Of a stretch of 50,622 nt of DNA, positions 38,167 through 50,257 are shown one piece after another. The notes beneath the pieces are model-generated. The model did not search any database. It was not told the origin of the DNA and saw only the letters and a list, made by a program, of their open reading frames with translations. The stretch spans positions 1-50,622 of the forward strand of contig CADBSF010000060.1 of the NCBI GenBank assembly GCA_902797265.1, written 5' to 3'. Numbering within the stretch: the stretch's first letter is position 1; each line of letters starts with the position of its first letter. The stretch comes from an uncultured Erysipelotrichaceae bacterium (GTDB taxonomy: Bacteria > Bacillota_I > Bacilli_A > RF39 > UBA660). A program made the position numbers and the translations under genes.

Positions 38167-39840
38167 TTATTCAATTTCTACAATATCACCAAACAATTCA
38201 ATTGCTCCGTTATTTATTATATCATTATTTTCGTTTTCTTCAAATATTACTTTTGGTTCTTCTAGAATTTGATAAGCAATATGATTTTTCAAATTATAAA
38301 CATATTCACTTTTTAACTTTTCCCAATTAGAATCGGTAACAATTGCAAAATTTTTATTTGACTTCGTAATTTTATAATAAACCTCAGAGATTTTATCTAA
38401 TATATTAATATTTTGTTTAACATTAGAATCATAAGGAAAACTAATAAGAATATTATCTTTACTAACAACTCTAACAGTAGAATCTAACAAAGAACAAACA
38501 ATATATCCTATTTCTTGATCAAAAGTATAATCTTTTAATAACTCAAAATTTTGAATTTCAGTTTTCAATAACTCTTTATTAGCACCAGCAAACGTATTAT
38601 TAATACGAACTTTCATAATTTCATCGATATTAATAATATTAGAAGGATAAGACATATCAACAGGATTATCTATAATACTAGACTTTTCTGTTTCAATAGG
38701 CTCAGAAATCAAAGAAGAAACAGAAGGTTTATCTTTATTCTCATTAGACGAATTAAAAGACAAAGAAGACTTAATATCATAAGAAACATTATTAGAAGAT
38801 TTCATGATATTATCATGTAAAAATTTCAAAATATTTACCTCAAATAACAATCGAACATTTGTACTTTTTTTAAAATCAGAAAGCTTATTTATAAGCATAT
38901 TAAGTAAATTATAATAATAATCAAAAGAAAAATCCAAAGTATTAGAATCTTCATAATAAGAAATAATAATACCTCTTAAATAATCAATTAATTGAAATAT
39001 AATTTGAATAAAATTTTTTCCAGAATCATAAAAATGATTAATACAAGATAAAGTGTTTTCCACATCCCCTTGAAATAAAAATTTAAGAAAATCAGAAATA
39101 TCATTATCAGAAATAGAACCACTTAATAATAAATAATCCTGATAAGTAATTTTATTAGAAGAGAAAGAAGATATTTGATCTAAAGAACCTAAAGCATCAC
39201 GTAATCCTCCTTTAGAAGAAGATGCAATAGCTTTTAAAACTTTATCTTCAATTTCAATATTTTCTTTTCCACAAACATATTTTAACCGTTCTACAATAGA
39301 AGATTCAGATATTCTTTGAAAAGAGAAACACTGACATCTAGAAACAATCGTTTCAGGAACTTTTTGAAGATCAGTAGTCGCTAAAATAAAGATAACATGT
39401 TCAGGTGGTTCTTCTAAAGTTTTTAATAAAGCATTAAAAGCACCAGTAGAAAGCATATGAACTTCATCTATAATATATACTTTATATTTCAATTGAGAAG
39501 GCACAAGAGAAATCTTACTTCTTAAATCACGAATCTCATCAACACCATTATTAGAAGCTGCATCAATTTCAATAATATCTACACATTCTTTAGAAAAAGA
39601 AACAAGACAATTAGAACATTTTCCACAAGCATTTCCTTCCTTTGGAGATAAACAATTTACATTTCTTGCAAAAATTTTTGATAAAGTTGTTTTACCAGTA
39701 CCTCTAGATCCAAAAAAGATATAAGCATGAGAAACAGAATTAGAAATAATAGAATTCTTCAAAGTTTTAACAATAACATCTTGACCAACAACAGAATCAA
39801 AATCCACAGGTCTATATTTACGATATAATGCATGATACAT
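38167..39840 (-). CDS. dnaX: DNA polymerase III subunit gamma/tau
   Basis: 557 aa. HAYIFFGSRGTGKTT, zinc module CGKCSNC, DEVHMLS, and VSRCQCF. Confidence 0.96.
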   Translation of the reverse strand: MYHALYRKYRPVDFDSVVGQDVIVKTLKNSIISNSVSHAYIFFGSRGTGKTTLSKIFARNVNCLSPKEGNACGKCSNCLVSFSKECVDIIEIDAASNNGVDEIRDLRSKISLVPSQLKYKVYIIDEVHMLSTGAFNALLKTLEEPPEHVIFILATTDLQKVPETIVSRCQCFSFQRISESSIVERLKYVCGKENIEIEDKVLKAIASSSKGGLRDALGSLDQISSFSSNKITYQDYLLLSGSISDNDISDFLKFLFQGDVENTLSCINHFYDSGKNFIQIIFQLIDYLRGIIISYYEDSNTLDFSFDYYYNLLNMLINKLSDFKKSTNVRLLFEVNILKFLHDNIMKSSNNVSYDIKSSLSFNSSNENKDKPSVSSLISEPIETEKSSIIDNPVDMSYPSNIINIDEIMKVRINNTFAGANKELLKTEIQNFELLKDYTFDQEIGYIVCSLLDSTVRVVSKDNILISFPYDSNVKQNINILDKISEVYYKITKSNKNFAIVTDSNWEKLKSEYVYNLKNHIAYQILEEPKVIFEENENNDIINNGAIELFGDIVEIE

Positions 39841-39927: not shown

Positions 39928-40377
39928 TCAAATTTCTCTTTTATTATGAAAAAACTTTTTTAACAAATCTTGGGAAGCAGATACATCTAAATTAGATATA
40001 AAATTAACACTAGGATTAACATAATCAGCTTTAAAAATAGCTTGAATTAAAGAAGTATTATTAGAATCAGAATTCTCTAAAGCAGAATAAACATTTCGAA
40101 TTCTAGACTGTTTAATAGCACTAGCACACATAGGACAAGGATCTAAAGTTACATATAAATCACAATCAAGTAATCTCCAATTATTAAGTTTTGATTGTGC
40201 ATCCTTTATTGCAAGAATCTCAGCATGGTTAATAGAACAATTAGTAGATTCTTTTTGATTATAACCAAAAGAAATAACTTCATTATTCTTAACAATAACA
40301 CAACCTATAGGAACTTCATCTAATTCATATGCCATATTTGCATAATGAAAAGCCAAATTCATATATTTAGAATTCAT
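39928..40377 (-). CDS. tadA: tRNA-specific adenosine deaminase
   Basis: Start set at the ATG at 40375-40377, behind GGAGG. Zinc motifs HAEILAI and PCPMCASAI. The upstream part of the track ORF overlaps the SRP RNA. Confidence 0.92.
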   Translation of the reverse strand: MNSKYMNLAFHYANMAYELDEVPIGCVIVKNNEVISFGYNQKESTNCSINHAEILAIKDAQSKLNNWRLLDCDLYVTLDPCPMCASAIKQSRIRNVYSALENSDSNNTSLIQAIFKADYVNPSVNFISNLDVSASQDLLKKFFHNKREI

Positions 40378-40391
40378 ATAAACCTCCAAAT

Positions 40392-40472
40392 AAAAAGTGC
40401 ACATGAAAGGAGGACCTTAAGGCTGCTATTTTCCAATCCTGACCTGGTTCAATCACTTTCATTGCACAATAC
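40392..40472 (-). ncRNA. ffs: signal recognition particle RNA, minimal 4.5S-like form (~75-80 nt)
   Basis: Minus strand: GUGCAAUGAAAGUGAUUGAACCAGGUCAGGAUUGGAAAAUAGCAGCCUUAAGGUCCUCCUUUCAUGUGCAC-UUUUU. It contains the domain IV signature CCAGGUCAGG-stem-GGAA tetraloop-stem-AGCAGCC.UAAGG. A closing helix GUGCA.AUGAAAG/CUUUCAU.GUGCAC and a U-tail follow. A TATAAT lies at 40479-40484. Confidence 0.85.
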
Positions 40473-40535
40473 TATTCTATTATAATTATGAAAAAAAGTA
40501 AACAAAAAAAGTATAATTATTAAAAAAATAAACAA

Positions 40536-40551
40536 TGTTTCACGTGAAACA
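40536..40551. promoter_or_regulatory. parS-type 16-bp palindrome, perfect (TGTTTCACGTGAAACA)
   Basis: Exact match to the symmetric form of the B. subtilis parS consensus TGTTNCACGTGAAACA. Binding is not tested. Confidence 0.75.
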
Positions 40552-40583
40552 TTATCTTCTCCAAATTAAATATCTTACAGAAT

Positions 40584-40599
40584 TATTTCCCGGGAAATA
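40584..40599. promoter_or_regulatory. Noc-binding-site-type palindrome, perfect (TATTTCCCGGGAAATA)
   Basis: Contains the B. subtilis NBS consensus ATTTCCCGGGAAAT exactly. Centre lies 48 bp from the preceding parS centre. Confidence 0.7.
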
Positions 40600-40632
40600 T
40601 TTTCATTCAATTTACTCTACTTAAATATCTTA

Positions 40633-40648
40633 TGTTTCACATGAAACA
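40633..40648. promoter_or_regulatory. parS-type palindrome, 1 mismatch (TGTTTCACATGAAACA)
   Basis: G to A at 40641 relative to the perfect copies. Confidence 0.6.
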
Positions 40649-40680
40649 TCCTATTATTCAAACAAAATATCTTAAAAAAT

Positions 40681-40696
40681 TATTTTTCGGGAAATA
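40681..40696. promoter_or_regulatory. NBS-type palindrome, 2 mismatches (TATTTTTCGGGAAATA)
   Basis: CC to TT at 40686-40687 relative to the perfect copies. Confidence 0.45.
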
Positions 40697-40729
40697 TTTT
40701 CATCCAATTTACTCTACTTAAATATCTTA

Positions 40730-40745
40730 TATTTCACATAAAACA
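40730..40745. promoter_or_regulatory. decayed parS-type site, 3 mismatches (TATTTCACATAAAACA)
   Basis: Positional homolog of parS in unit 3. Three G to A changes, so probably non-functional. Confidence 0.3.
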
Positions 40746-40777
40746 TTCTCTTATCCAAACAAAATATCTTACAGAAT

Positions 40778-40793
40778 TATTTCCCGGGAAATA
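40778..40793. promoter_or_regulatory. NBS-type palindrome, perfect
   Basis: TATTTCCCGGGAAATA. Confidence 0.7.
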
Positions 40794-40826
40794 TTTTTAT
40801 TCAATTTACTCTACTAAAATAACTCA

Positions 40827-40842
40827 TGTTTCACGTGAAACA
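40827..40842. promoter_or_regulatory. parS-type palindrome, perfect
   Basis: TGTTTCACGTGAAACA. Confidence 0.75.
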
Positions 40843-40874
40843 TCCTATTATCCAAACAAAATATCTTACAGAAT

Positions 40875-40890
40875 TATTTCCCGGGAAATA
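40875..40890. promoter_or_regulatory. NBS-type palindrome, perfect
   Basis: TATTTCCCGGGAAATA. Confidence 0.7.
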
Positions 40891-40923
40891 TTTTCGTACA
40901 AATTACTCTACTTAAATATCTTA

Positions 40924-40939
40924 TGTTTCACGTGAAACA
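40924..40939. promoter_or_regulatory. parS-type palindrome, perfect
   Basis: TGTTTCACGTGAAACA. Confidence 0.75.
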
Positions 40940-40971
40940 TCCTCTTATCCAAACAAAATATCTTACAGAAT

Positions 40972-40987
40972 TATTTCCCGGGAAATA
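40972..40987. promoter_or_regulatory. NBS-type palindrome, perfect
   Basis: TATTTCCCGGGAAATA. Confidence 0.7.
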
Positions 40988-41020
40988 TTTTCATACAAAT
41001 TACTCTACTAAAATATCTTA

Positions 41021-41036
41021 TGTTTCACGTGAAACA
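41021..41036. promoter_or_regulatory. parS-type palindrome, perfect
   Basis: TGTTTCACGTGAAACA. Confidence 0.75.
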
Positions 41037-41068
41037 TTCTCTTATTCAAACAAAATACCTTATAAAAT

Positions 41069-41084
41069 TATTTCCCGGGAAATA
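41069..41084. promoter_or_regulatory. NBS-type palindrome, perfect (palindrome extends to AAAATTATTTCCCGGGAAATAATTTT)
   Basis: TATTTCCCGGGAAATA with extended symmetric flanks in this last unit. Confidence 0.7.
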
Positions 41085-41133
41085 ATTTTATAAATATAAA
41101 TATTTAAAACTCAGATTTTACATGAAACATCAT

Positions 41134-41160
41134 AAAAAAAAATCAAGGTAATAACCTTGA
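41134..41160 (-). terminator. rho-independent terminator of gyrA
   Basis: UCAAGGU-uauu-ACCUUGA followed by U9 on the minus strand, 20 nt after the gyrA stop. Confidence 0.7.
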
Positions 41161-41180
41161 TAATTTTATAATAGAACTAT

Positions 41181-43619
41181 TTATTTTGACTCTTCTGAAA
41201 TAGATTCTTCCTTTTCCACAAGAGCAACAGTAGATACTAACTGATTTTCTTTCAAATTAATTAAACGAACACCTTGAGTAGCTCTTTTTAAAGTAGAAAC
41301 TTGTTCTAAAGGTAATTTAATAGTAATTCCACTATCTGTAATAATAATTAAATCTAAAGAAGAATCAGGATGTAAACATTTCAATGATGCCATATTTCCA
41401 TTTTTCTCAGTAATATTTAAAGCTTTAACACCCTTACTACCTCTATGAGTTAATCGGTATTCATCAATAAATGTTTGTTTTCCATAACCCTTTTCAGTAA
41501 CAATTAAAACTAATTCACCAGGATCCACAACTTCAGAACCAACAACATGAGCACCATCCAAATCAATTCCTTTAACTCCTGAACTACTTCTACCTAAAGA
41601 ACGAACTTCATTTTCATTAAATCTAACAAGACGACCATTACTTGCTCCAATAACAATTTCATTTTTTCCACAAGTGCTTTTTACACTTATTAATTCATCA
41701 TCTTCCTTTAAAACAATAGCAATTTTACCACTTTTTCTGATATTATCAAACTCTTCAATTCGAGTTCTCTTAACAATACCACCCTTAGTAGCAAAGAATA
41801 AATATTTCGTAAAATCATCATTTTGTTTAATACTAACAATCGAACTTATGTTCTCTTCTTTTTCTAAAGGTAATAAATTAACAATTGGTAATCCCTTAGA
41901 TTGTCTAGAAAATTCAGGAACTTCATATCCTTTTAATCGATATACTCTACCCAAATTAGAGAAGAATAAAATATAATCATGAGTATTCATTGAAATTAAA
42001 TGTTCAACAAAATCTTCTTCATTAGTAGACATTCCTTTAATACCTACACCACCCCTATTTTGAGTTTTGTATGTATCAGTTCTAAGTCTCTTAATATATC
42101 CTTTCTTAGTTAAATTAATAATAATATCTTCTTCAGGAATAAGTGATTCATCTTCTATATATTCAATAGCAGTCATATCAATATTCGTTCTACGCTCATC
42201 ACCATATTTCTGCTTAATTTCTAATAATTCATTTTTAATAACCTCTAAAATCTTTTCATCACTAGCTAAAATAGATTTTAATTCCTTGATTAATTTTAAT
42301 AAATCATTTAATTCATTTTCTATTTTTTCACGTTCTAAACCAGTTAAACGACGTAATCTCATCTCTAAGATTGCATTTGCTTGAATCTCAGTTAAACCAA
42401 AGCCTTTCATCAAACCATTCTTAGCTTCTTCATCAGATTCAGAACCACGAATAACTTTAATAACAGCATCAATATTATCTAAAGCAATTTTTAATCCCTC
42501 TAAAATATGAACTCTCTTTTCAGCAACATCTAGATCAAATCTTGTTCTACGAATAATAACTTCTTTTTGATAATCAATATATTTAGAAATAATATCCTTT
42601 AATCCCAATGTCTTAGGAACGCCTTGATCTAGCATCAAAAAGATAATTCCATAAGTAGTTTGAAAAGCAGTATGCTTATATAACTTATTTAAAACAACTT
42701 GTGCATTAGCATCTCTTTTCAAAGTAATCGTAATCTTAATTCCATTTTTTAAATCAGAATGGTAATCAGCAATACCATCAATTACTTTATTATGAACAAG
42801 TTCAGCTACTTTATTCTTTAATTCTAAAGTATTTACCCCATAAGGAACTTCATCAATGATAATGTGTTGTTTACCATTTTCCTCTTCAATAGTAGCCTTA
42901 CTACGAATAGTAATAGATCCCCTACCAGTCTCATAAGCTTTTCGTATACCACTATTTCCCAAAATAATTGCTCCTGTAGGAAAATCAGGTCCCTTAATAT
43001 ATTTCATAAGACCATCTACATCAATATCAGGATTTTCAATATATGCAACACAACCATCAATAACTTCCCCTAAATTATGAGGAGGAATATTAGTTGCCAT
43101 ACCAACCGCAATACCAGTAGTTCCATTTACTAATATATTAGGGAATCTAGAAGGTAACACTTCAGGTTCTCTCTCACTTTCATCAAAATTAGGAACAAAA
43201 TTAACTGTATCTTTATTGATATTTCTTAATAATTCCAAAGAAATTTTAGATAATCTAGATTCTGTATAACGCATAGCTGCAGCACCATAACCCTCAATAT
43301 TACCAAAATTTCCATGACCATCAACTAACATATAACGATAAGAAAAATCCTGTGCCATACGAACCATAGCTTCATAAATAGAAGAATCTCCATGAGGATG
43401 ATATTTTCCCATAACATCTCCAACAATTCTTGCACTTTTCTTATGAGGTTTATCAGGAGTATAACCAGATTCAAACATAGAATATAAAATACGTCTATGA
43501 ACAGGCTTTAATCCATCTCTTAAATCAGGAAGCGCACGAGCAACAATAACACTCATTGAATATTCCAAAAAAGAATCTTGAACTTCCTTAACAATATTAT
43601 TTTTTTCTAATCTATCCAT
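41181..43619 (-). CDS. gyrA: DNA gyrase subunit A
   Basis: 812 aa. [20 protein letters not shown], active-site [11 protein letters not shown], and C-terminal beta-pinwheel repeats. Confidence 0.98.
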
Positions 43620-46860: not shown

Positions 46861-47307
46861 TTATTGTTTTTTATGAGATCTCAGTATAAAATCCAATCTA
46901 GAAGCCCTAGATAATTGATTTTCAATACTTCGATAAGAACATTGGACAAGTATCTCTTTATTGTTATCAAAAATAATTTTAGTATGATTATTATCAACTT
47001 TAACAAACTTTTTAATTCTTTTTAATGAAATCCATACACAATCAGGAGCCGATGGTGAAGTTGTTGGAAAAACAATTAAATTATCACTATCTTCTACAAC
47101 GATAGGTACTTTATATTCAGCACCAAGTATTTCCTTAGCTCCCTCTTTTCTTCCTTCGTAAGAACTTCCAAAATACTTACAACTATCTTCCATGATACTA
47201 AAAGGAGTTTGTGGTATAACATATCGACTCTCATCTTCGTATACTAAACTTCCATTCTTATCATTGGGAACAATAGCTAATGTTCCTCTACTAATTTCAT
47301 AATTCAT
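46861..47307 (-). CDS. comK: ComK-family transcription factor
   Basis: Start set at the ATG at 47305-47307 (the track start is TTG). SCKYFGSSYEGRKEGA parallels B. subtilis ComK SCRFFGSSYAGRKAGT. LIVFPTTSPSAPDCVWIS parallels IFLFPTLSSTRPQCGWIS. 148 aa, so it lacks the last ~40 aa of B. subtilis ComK. Confidence 0.75.
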   Translation of the reverse strand: MNYEISRGTLAIVPNDKNGSLVYEDESRYVIPQTPFSIMEDSCKYFGSSYEGRKEGAKEILGAEYKVPIVVEDSDNLIVFPTTSPSAPDCVWISLKRIKKFVKVDNNHTKIIFDNNKEILVQCSYRSIENQLSRASRLDFILRSHKKQ

Positions 47308-47594
47308 ATAATATCCCCCCAAATGAAAACAAAATTTGTTTTCAAATATGTTATATCATTTTCTTTTGTCTAATTATGACGAATTATGTCAAAAATAATA
47401 AAAAATGATATTTTCTATATATATAATACCGAAAAATATCATTTATCCGTAACAAAAATTTAAGGAAACTTAAATTGCTTTGGTCTTAACCTCCCAAAAT
47501 TCCTACTTCTAAGTAAAGGTAACCCTCTATTTCCACAGGCTTCAATTCCGATGATTGTCACCGTACTCATTTTAAACACACTTTCATTATAAAT

Positions 47595-48883: not shown

Positions 48884-50257
48884 TTACACAACACCAATAT
48901 CTTTTTTTAATTTTTCAATAATATTAGCCAAATCTTTATTATTTTTTATTTCATTTTCTATCTTTTCAACAGAATACATAACAGTTGTATGATCCTTACC
49001 TCCAAATTCTATTGCAATTTTAGGAAAAGATTCATTAGTAAGATTTCTACAGAGGTACATGGCAATTTGTCTTGGAAAAGAAATATTTGCACTTCTTTTT
49101 TTACTTCGAATATCCTCAACTGATATTTGAAAGTATTCAGCTACAATTCTTTGTATTCTTTGAATATCATTCTTTTCTCCCATTCCTTTACTAACAAATT
49201 CTGTTAAAGCTTCAATGGCTAGATCTAAAGTAATATCCTTACCTCCCATCATAGCCGCATAAGCAATCAATCGATTAATAGAGCCCTCCAACTGCCTAAC
49301 ATCAGGTCCTATATTATTCGCAATATATTCAATTACCTCATCTGGAATATCATTTTCAAATTGACCAGCAACCAATTTCTTTCTTAATATTTCTTTCTTT
49401 AATGCTAAATCAGGAGGATAAATATTAACGGTTAATCCCCAAGAAAATCTAGTTTTAAGCCTATCAGCAAGTATTTTTAAATCATTTGGAGACCGATCAG
49501 AGGAAATGATAATTTGTTTGCTGTCATTAAATAGATTATTAAAAGTATTAAAAAATGACTCCTGAGATTTAGGACCTCTTAATAATTGAATATCATCAAT
49601 TAATAAAACATCGATACTTCTATATTTATTATTAAAGAAACTAATATAACTAAAATTCTCCTCATCTTCATTTTTATTATATACATTAATATAATCTTGC
49701 ATAAATTGTTCACTAGTAACATATAATACCTTTTTATTTGAATTTGTTACAATATAGTTTCCAATTGCATGCATTAAATGAGTTTTGCCTAATCCACTAT
49801 TTCCATATAAAAACAATGGATTATACATAGTACCAGGATTTTCCGCAACACTTAAAGCTGCCGCATGAGCAAATTTATTACTATTTCCAACAATAAAATT
49901 ATCAAACAAATATCTTTTATTTAAATTATTATTAACGTTATCATTAATAATAGAAGTATTAGTACTAGGATTCCCATTATTGATGGGGATAGTATCTTTT
50001 TTTAATTCTATTTCTTCTTTTAGAATAAATACTAAATCATAGTTTGAATTAGTAATATCATATAAAGTATTACTAATAAGATTTGAATAATTATCTTTTA
50101 AATGTTTTTTATGAATTGCCATAGGTACAATGATATAAGCTTTATCATTTTCAATTTTATTTAATTCCGTATCCTTAAACCAAGTTTCGTAAGAAAGAGA
50201 AGTCATTTCATCTTTTAAATGATTTAATAATTTTGACCAAAGTAATTCATAATTCAT
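48884..50257 (-). CDS. dnaA: chromosomal replication initiator protein DnaA
   Basis: 457 aa. Walker A GNSGLGKTHLMHAIGN, box VII/sensor motifs, and C-terminal DNA-binding helix GGKDHTTVMYSVEKI. Confidence 0.98.
   Translation of the reverse strand: MNYELLWSKLLNHLKDEMTSLSYETWFKDTELNKIENDKAYIIVPMAIHKKHLKDNYSNLISNTLYDITNSNYDLVFILKEEIELKKDTIPINNGNPSTNTSIINDNVNNNLNKRYLFDNFIVGNSNKFAHAAALSVAENPGTMYNPLFLYGNSGLGKTHLMHAIGNYIVTNSNKKVLYVTSEQFMQDYINVYNKNEDEENFSYISFFNNKYRSIDVLLIDDIQLLRGPKSQESFFNTFNNLFNDSKQIIISSDRSPNDLKILADRLKTRFSWGLTVNIYPPDLALKKEILRKKLVAGQFENDIPDEVIEYIANNIGPDVRQLEGSINRLIAYAAMMGGKDITLDLAIEALTEFVSKGMGEKNDIQRIQRIVAEYFQISVEDIRSKKRSANISFPRQIAMYLCRNLTNESFPKIAIEFGGKDHTTVMYSVEKIENEIKNNKDLANIIEKLKKDIGVV

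Follow-up and report, generated by a model that had tools for sequence, protein, structure and literature searches.

A stretch of 50,622 nucleotides from an uncultured Erysipelotrichaceae bacterium (contig CADBSF010000060.1), called the window hereafter and analysed at its full length, carries between gyrA and the gene for the small signal recognition particle (SRP) RNA a tandem array in which two different 16-bp palindromes alternate. One of these matches parS, the site of the partition protein ParB (Spo0J in Bacillus subtilis), and the other the Noc-binding site (NBS), the site of the ParB paralogue Noc. The array exists as described, is under selection and occurs widely in the RF39-type Bacilli, a major gut clade, and it is probably a selected, origin-proximal composite centromere, i.e. 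a loading platform for two paralogous cytidine triphosphate (CTP) clamps of the ParB family. Tandem Repeats Finder (TRF) reports this array and no other in the window (period 97, 5.8 copies, 89% matches, zero indels, score 871), and each unit holds one parS TGTTTCACGTGAAACA and one NBS TATTTCCCGGGAAATA, whose centres alternate at 48/49 bp. The array and its sites are as follows.

40535..41092 (strand not applicable): tandem array, 5.8 units of 97 bp, from TRF and reading of the sequence
40536..40551: parS 1, perfect TGTTTCACGTGAAACA
40584..40599: NBS 1, perfect TATTTCCCGGGAAATA
40633..40648: parS 2, 1 mismatch (central G>A)
40681..40696: NBS 2, 2 mismatches (CC>TT)
40730..40745: parS 3, 3 mismatches (all G>A), probably inactive
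40778..40793: NBS 3, perfect
40827..40842: parS 4, perfect
40875..40890: NBS 4, perfect
40924..40939: parS 5, perfect
40972..40987: NBS 5, perfect
41021..41036: parS 6, perfect
41069..41084: NBS 6, perfect
41114..41129: decayed parS remnant GATTTTACATGAAACA, 4 mismatches and 4 bp off register, counted by eye

When up to three mismatches are allowed, the window has seven matches to parS against 0.24 expected and seven to NBS against 0.21, a number that none of 100 shuffles reaches for either site, and outside the array no parS or NBS with two mismatches or fewer occurs in the 50.6-kb window. The 97-bp array of alternating palindromes, which an earlier note had read from the letters, is thus borne out by TRF as well as by mismatch counts. 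The six mutations that hit palindromes in units 2 and 3 are without exception transitions, G>A or C>T. The only other readable sample of the same species has the same gyrA-tadA spacer of 803 bp. Within the window alone, mismatches amount to 6/192 in palindromes versus 27/358 in linkers (Fisher p=0.039). This edge is modest, so the caveat attached to the first description, that selection on the sites could not be demonstrated from the window by itself, was a fair one, and the matter is settled only by comparison between species.

On sequence identity, the assignment of the two palindromes to parS and NBS holds. The array 16-mers TGTTTCACGTGAAACA and TATTTCCCGGGAAATA are identical to the core parS and NBS duplexes of in vitro work on ParB and Noc, in which the duplex oligonucleotides were GGATGTTTCACGTGAAACATCC for parS and GGATATTTCCCGGGAAATATCC for NBS (PMC8429893). 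In the case of parS, the 16-bp palindrome fits the consensus TGTTNCACGTGAAACA in four perfect copies plus copies with one and three mismatches, the array lies near the origin, and a genome of the same species encodes ParA together with a ParB that has parS-type specificity residues. The array lies 7.6 kb from oriC if the dnaA-dnaN spacer is taken as reference and 9.1 kb if the 5' end of dnaA (50257) is; the proximity that had been claimed therefore stands, at a distance slightly below the figure given for it (~9.5 kb). In the case of NBS, the palindrome contains ATTTCCCGGGAAAT and is present as five perfect 16-mers and one with two mismatches, and the species encodes a paralogue with Q173, K/R at 179 and/or 184, and R201 (Q-K-S-R).

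The slot that the array occupies is bounded by the gyrA terminator on one side and the SRP RNA on the other, again as first described, and the features that frame it are these.

41181..43619, minus strand: gyrA (NF004043, 1152.8 bits), by synteny the array's upstream flank in all relatives
41142..41161, minus strand: intrinsic-terminator-like hairpin and T-run, closing the gyrBA transcript
40381..40478, minus strand: ffs, the small SRP RNA (RF00169, 58.7 bits, E=1.9e-10), directly downstream of the array
39928..40377, minus strand: tadA, 149 aa (NF008113), conserved downstream flank
38167..39840, minus strand: dnaX
48884..50257, minus strand: dnaA, marking oriC

The case for selection comes from this same slot in related species, which are uncultured gut Bacilli known from metagenome-assembled genomes (MAGs) labelled "Mollicutes" or "Tenericutes", with GyrA proteins 80-92% identical to that of the window. 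Among them are Mycoplasma sp. CAG:877 and Candidatus Faecimonas, the latter corresponding to GTDB genus CAG-877 in the order RF39 (PMC8035907). Both palindromes are retained between gyrA and tadA in ~300 related RF39-type loci from more than 200 species, and nearly all of the GyrA-anchored loci that extend past gyrA (n=80) have several parS and NBS directly after that gene. A search covering 185,579 species, with one genome apiece, for a perfect parS followed after 8-38 bp by a perfect NBS, i.e. parS-N(8-38)-NBS, returned at least 120 matches. Among the matches listed, 119 of 120 adjoin gyrA, tadA or dnaX, and all come from MAGs of RF39 type, whose GyrA (again among the matches listed) is only 58-92% identical to that of the window. 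A generic dispersed or mobile repeat, one of the outcomes that had been named as refuting the proposal, is rejected on this concentration at one syntenic slot. The one composite match elsewhere (L085:35-534) sits at a contig end beside genes for a lipoate ligase and gcvT, gcvH, gcvPA and gcvPB, and is either a rearrangement or a mis-join.

Within these loci, which together hold 509 perfect parS and 471 perfect NBS, it is the sites that are kept and not what lies between them. Information content, computed with one site per locus, drops to background immediately beyond the palindromes, conservation past the core being limited to further symmetric bases, one in parS and four in NBS, which gives an extended NBS AAATTATTTCCCGGGAAATAATTT; mismatches in parS cluster at two known degenerate pairs of positions, 5/12 and 1/16. 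The window's two linkers have no match (E<1e-3) in the ~300 related loci, among which the gyrA 3' end matches 173, ffs 113 and tadA 101, and the whole unit matches 290 via its palindromes alone. The unit period ranges from 30 to 409 bp across relatives. The comparison of gyrA-ffs/tadA spacers that the earlier note had proposed hence has a clear outcome, sites kept and linkers not, and it bears directly on the idea that the array is a recent neutral amplification. That idea draws on the window itself, where linkers are nearly as conserved as sites and units 2 and 3 carry palindrome mutations, but over ~300 loci both palindromes persist while linkers have become unalignable and periods turn over, which excludes it. 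As to how the sites are arranged, the commonest unit, seen in 40 of the 70 distinct ones, pairs a single parS with a single NBS, and neighbouring sites are of alternating type in 300 cases versus 87 of the same type. Two relatives (L058 and L060) have NBS-only arrays with a period of ~75 bp and 4 and 9 sites, respectively, in which no parS is found at two mismatches or fewer.

Beyond the array, both sites are scarce. Around noc and parB, 0.63 Mb from 80 species contain neither a parS nor an NBS, parB itself included as regards parS, and in 0.88 Mb around gyrA there is almost nothing beyond the cluster except a recurrent NBS in dnaX. In the regions scanned, no parS turned up anywhere but in the intergenic cluster. 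The perfect extended NBS in the dnaX coding sequence is found in many relatives (L027-L064), sometimes twice (e.g. L041:11437, L029:11216, and L031:11798 and 11828), where it reads I-I-S-R-E-I-I-S; the window's own dnaX has none. Since it falls in a non-conserved linker of the protein and the flanking codons vary, it points to DNA-level selection on NBS. In a scan, the extended NBS, 22 bp long, was matched by 120 stretches, with ~90 at the gyrA-tadA-dnaX-recR locus and ~30 elsewhere, the outlying ones being mostly intergenic single sites, a few of them in unrelated taxa. Judged by such matches, the array locus is, in the regions scanned, the sole parS cluster seen and the dominant NBS cluster. 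In Ligilactobacillus acidipiscis, a member of the Lactobacillales, the gyrB-gyrA spacer of 73 bp contains a perfect extended NBS (L343:7237), and the link between NBS and the gyrase operon may predate RF39.

The proteins that would read the two sites are encoded ~7-10 kb past the end of the window, on a contig of the same species (L081, with an identical DnaA) that reaches further. There, rpmH-rnpA-yidC-jag-mnmE-mnmG-rsmG are followed by a gene for a 458-aa ParB-like protein, then by parA (262 aa) and parB (302 aa), and the order GidB, ParB-like, ParA, ParB is common to L081-L083. This is the same layout as in B. subtilis, rsmG-noc-soj-spo0J. All three genes that had been predicted near rsmG (parB, soj and a noc paralogue) are therefore in place, whereas the N-terminal amphipathic membrane helix expected of the last is absent. 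The 458-aa protein, which we call NocL for Noc-like because it fails two defining tests of Noc (this helix and a curated profile cut-off), consists of PF02195 and PF17762 domains and has Noc structures as its best PDB matches (7NFU, 3e-60; 7OL9, 4e-54), and the best match of ParB is B. subtilis Spo0J (6SDK, 2e-59). GERR, PNRFQPR and ENLQR are invariant in the NocL alignment, which makes a CTP-clamp mechanism plausible. GERR and ENLQR belong to the CTP pocket and are conserved in both proteins, and ParB carries a KRRALGRGL motif at its N-terminus. NocL occurs as two alleles within the species, of 458 aa (L081:2010-3386) and 482 aa (L082:1420-2868), the difference being a tandem duplication of 24 residues immediately ahead of the C-terminal domain.

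Which protein reads which site can be predicted from four residues, numbered as positions 173/179/184/201 of Caulobacter ParB and extracted here from an alignment. They are RTAG in ParB versus QKKR in Noc, a K/R at 179 or 184 being found in ~91% of the NBS-specific variants in a deep mutational scan, and variants of dual specificity typically having T or S at position 201 (PMC7383237). NocL of this species has Q-K-S-R and ParB R-M-S-A. Across relatives, both paralogues are present in each of the 81 genomes checked, NocL is Q-K-x-R in 81/81, and every recovered ParB copy is R-M-x-G or R-M-x-A. Two paralogues with opposite residue types suggest two distinct cognate readers and make a single protein for both sites unnecessary. 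That a single ParB-family protein of dual specificity serves the whole array, the second option of the earlier note, is disfavoured by the presence of the opposite-residue pair in every genome checked and by the lack of T or S at position 201 in either paralogue; to this option and neutral amplification (the third) taken together we give hardly any credence.

The two site types are not spaced at random distances. Centre-to-centre distances between neighbouring parS and NBS peak at ~26, 36-37, 47-48, 57-58, 68 and 79 bp, i.e. at 2.5-7.5 helical turns, and the phasing at 10.5 bp is seen however the distances are sampled: with all distinct distances per locus (n=475, R=0.275, Rayleigh p=2.5e-16, phase 4.7 bp), with the shortest distance per array (n=187, R=0.313, p=1e-8, phase 4.4 bp) and with one distance per linker family (n=285, R=0.183, p=7e-5, phase 4.8 bp). 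In the one-per-array set, the favoured half-cycle holds 65% of distances (binomial p=5e-5), and in the linker-family set a value as high as that observed turns up in 1 of 5000 draws under a smoothed-envelope null. Neighbouring NBS lean towards integral turns (phase 9.8 bp, p=0.007), neighbouring parS show no phasing, and the 48/49 bp of the window, or 4.6 turns, fits the half-turn pattern. A spacing at half-integral turns means that the two site types tend to lie on opposite faces of the helix, and since the phasing persists at distances at which steric clash plays no part, it points to a higher-order architecture.

The same distances have to be weighed for the idea that the two clamps antagonise each other, with NBS-bound NocL acting as a roadblock to ParB clamps (or the reverse) and limiting their spread into gyrBA and ffs-tadA-dnaX. 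Sites can be as near as 18-26 bp centre to centre, proteins bound at sites impede the spreading of ParB (reviewed in PMC7333895), and essential genes lie on both sides of the array, all of which would suit such insulation. A roadblock needs only flanking sites, though, and neither interleaving nor half-turn phasing out to ~80 bp; at either edge of many arrays the last site can be of either type; and NBS extend into dnaX, which is the opposite of protecting it. We therefore consider insulation an unlikely purpose of the array. An origin-proximal platform on which two clamps load, which was the first option of the earlier note, is by comparison supported by conservation, by the two paralogues and by helical phasing alike.

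NocL departs from canonical Noc in ways that matter for what such a platform might do. The protein starts with MYPDSRDEVV, ~10 acidic residues that are followed by the ParB N-domain, and a strong Shine-Dalgarno sequence directly precedes its ATG, upstream frames being closed in other species. An upstream TTG start that would add a helix was rejected, for the extension is not conserved, the Shine-Dalgarno sequence abuts the ATG and stop codons occur there in other species. No N-terminal amphipathic membrane helix (residues 1-15 in Noc) is found in the NocL of any of the 81 genomes, nor in any of 150 representatives of its family, whose N-termini are short and acidic. In Noc, this helix is "extremely" conserved in all homologues examined and required for function (PMC4331003). 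The family was defined by an exhaustive search of 1.84 billion cluster representatives, of which the best 150 were analysed (P0121-P0270). These best 150 are 221 to 982 aa long (nearly all >330 aa) with a median of 16 residues ahead of the PNxFQPR box, and have Q173 in 150/150, R201 in 149/150, K179 in 147/150 and K184 in 0/150; the family is on average 49% identical to canonical Noc and 45% to ParB (group means). Where named at all in public records, its proteins are labelled only "ParB/RepB/Spo0J family". By sequence comparison, NocL is thus a member of a large unnamed Noc-like family with Q-K-x-R residues and a linker of variable length. That of NocL itself, ~210 residues between the DNA-binding and C-terminal dimerisation domains, is predicted to be disordered by AlphaFold2, the model having a mean pLDDT (predicted local distance difference test) of 58.8 with the DNA-binding and C-terminal domains confident and the N-domain poor, yet it contains the conserved islands YGKVTIAPP, KFINYGEI, LDSLLN, FITPAExIVK and DYF.

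NocL therefore has the ParB fold, CTP boxes, both domains and gene position of Noc, and lacks its helix and the score of the TIGR04285 profile. Could it nevertheless be a working Noc that mediates canonical nucleoid occlusion and reaches the membrane by another route, NBS and parS being clustered together by coincidence because both favour the origin? The position of the gene and the Noc structures among its best matches would agree with this, as would isolated NBS elsewhere in RF39-type genomes and the enrichment of Noc sites towards the origin in B. subtilis and S. aureus (PMC5540599). However, the helix that is required for function (PMC4331003) is missing in 81/81 genomes and 150/150 representatives, which means that membrane tethering is not transferable from B. 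subtilis; ~90 of the 120 extended-NBS stretches are at the array locus; and coincidence leaves 119 of 120 listed pairs at one slot, as well as alternation and phasing, unexplained. Canonical occlusion is, in our view, decidedly improbable here.

Even for the composite platform the record is not of one piece, and the points that weigh against it concern the sites, the protein and the nature of the evidence. As for the sites, some relatives have units or whole arrays of a single site type (parS or NBS), the strict alternation follows in part from the duplication of a unit that has one site of each type, and isolated NBS elsewhere indicate that NocL is not confined to the array locus. The phasing is statistical and not absolute (65%), and the species in which it is seen are phylogenetically related. 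Many MAG contigs (L003, L008, L011, L013, L014, L030 and others) stop in the array or a few hundred bases after it, so the array breaks short-read assemblies and copy numbers taken from them, which make up most of those available here, are unreliable. As for the protein, position 184 of NocL is S, G, A, T or N and never the K of Noc, and on the TIGR04285 (nucleoid_noc) profile it scores 285.6 bits against a cut-off of 315, covering profile positions 1-196 of 255; being below the cut-off and helix-less, it may have a cellular role other than that of Noc. Lastly, binding, occupancy and clamp loading of ParB and NocL at the array are what we infer from sequence for a clade that is uncultured.

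How might a composite centromere of this kind work? ParB/Spo0J would load at parS and NocL, the helix-less orthologue of Noc, at NBS, after which both clamps would close with CTP and slide into flanking DNA, thereby forming one mixed nucleoprotein complex beside oriC in which ParB dimers and NocL dimers would lie on opposite faces of the helix. ParB could couple this complex to ParA through its N-terminal K/R-LGRGL motif (and, by analogy, to SMC), and NocL might recruit a partner via the conserved motifs of its linker instead of tethering DNA to the membrane. We offer it as a tentative possibility, and no stronger than that, that RF39-type Bacilli segregate or organise their origin by such a hetero-paralogue partition complex, in which ParB and a helix-less Noc relative act together from opposite faces, and that the linker-bearing Q-K-x-R family is a Noc lineage in a centromere-associated role rather than in nucleoid occlusion. 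The helix-less Q-K-x-R family could also be the state that existed before the amphipathic helix was grafted, in which case the specificity switch preceded the membrane function in the evolution of Noc.

Most parts of this system are already known, namely parS/ParB, NBS/Noc, tandem-repeat centromeres of plasmids and clustered chromosomal parS. The clusters, which reach 20-23 sites in Streptomyces and Listeria (PMC7333895), correct the statement of the earlier note that known parS are single and kilobases apart; the unusual feature is that parS are interleaved with NBS, and not that they cluster. The likeness to the ParABS system of B. subtilis (Spo0J-parS) lies in the same 16-bp parS near the origin, in ParA and ParB genes by rsmG and in a ParB of the R...G specificity class with an N-terminal LGRGL motif. 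What differs in RF39 is that parS are lined up as a regular tandem array within a single intergenic spacer and are not scattered and mostly intragenic, that none is within parB, and that they are interleaved with sites for a second paralogue. Similarly, the NBS core, the position of the noc gene, Q173/K179/R201 and the CTP-pocket motifs are those of the Noc-NBS system of B. subtilis and S. aureus, whereas NocL has no membrane helix, no K184, a disordered linker of ~210 aa and a score below TIGR04285, and its sites, in the stretches scanned, are concentrated in one array shared with parS as opposed to ~40-70 dispersed ones, which are spread across the origin-proximal part of the chromosome and missing around the terminus.

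The sopC centromere of the F plasmid consists of 12 repeats of 43 bp that are bound by SopB, a ParB-family protein. As in sopC, repeats in RF39 run head to tail and each has a palindrome for a ParB-family protein, the sequence of the unit turning over fast while the site stays; unlike sopC, the array is chromosomal, sits in a fixed syntenic slot and has in each unit two site types for two paralogues. Both pairs have been brought together by design in mParSpot, which is reported to use engineered ParB-parS and Noc-NBS as two labels in one cell that do not cross-react (PMC11109969). mParSpot is artificial and has its sites at separate loci, whereas the RF39 array interleaves them with helical phasing. 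An incomplete search of the literature found no description of interleaved parS/NBS arrays, of parS in RF39 or of helix-less Noc relatives.

ParB and Noc are the textbook case of a duplicated DNA-binding protein whose copies have diverged both in sites and in jobs, one for segregation and the other for control of division. That a clade of hundreds of gut species keeps both site types interleaved at one origin-proximal spot, in a fixed rotational relation, makes it a natural system for asking (i) whether one piece of DNA is shared by two paralogous CTP clamps, and by what means, and (ii) in which order Noc arose from ParB, by specificity switch or by grafting of the helix first (PMC7333895), especially since the NocL family lacks the anchor thought to define Noc function and has so far gone by the label "ParB/RepB/Spo0J" only. 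There is a practical side to it as well, for it is just downstream of gyrA that the array breaks short-read assemblies from this clade.

Turning to the neighbourhood, the position of the array directly upstream of ffs raises the question of whether it is an operator, through which ParB-family proteins would control, as KorB does, the transcription of ffs-tadA-dnaX or gyrBA. KorB is indeed a distant match of both paralogues, and a weak -35/-10 match runs over the first parS (40543-40516 on the minus strand). A promoter array was rejected, promoter-like matches numbering 8 versus 9.5 in shuffles; moreover, regulation would need neither 6-11 copies per site nor perfect canonical parS, and a full set of ParA-ParB partition genes is present. 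The operator reading is accordingly very improbable, and the composite centromere is the reading that we retain for this spacer. The hairpin at 41142..41161 is predicted to insulate the array from gyrA read-through. On the other side, the longest tadA open reading frame (39928-40404, 158 aa) overlaps the SRP RNA by 24 nt, an overlap that is abolished by the 149-aa start at 40377. A known RNA in the array was rejected as well, Rfam matches in the window being the SRP RNA and an L10 leader only, and viral and plasmid collections gave no match to the array.

DnaA-box-like sequences are found on both sides of dnaA. Within the array, TTATCCAAA is a one-mismatch DnaA box that occurs in three of the six units, at 40751, 40848 and 40945. 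A DnaA-box cluster was nevertheless rejected, DnaA boxes not being enriched window-wide, and although the perfect box TTATCCACA is enriched in the linkers of related arrays (15 of 175, 0.4 expected), its restriction to these 15 implies that DnaA boxes are not a defining component.

All genes of the window are on the minus strand, in the order dnaA, dnaN, a ComK homologue, recF, gyrB, gyrA, terminator hairpin, array, SRP RNA, tadA, dnaX, ybaB and recR, beyond which lie holB, a PSP1/yaaT-like gene, genes for methyltransferases, pth, mfd, metG and tatD. The ComK homologue (PF06338, 156.6 bits; 46861-47322, minus strand) is surprising where it stands between dnaN and recF, as a competence regulator in a reduced genome; in Bacillus this position is that of yaaA/remB.

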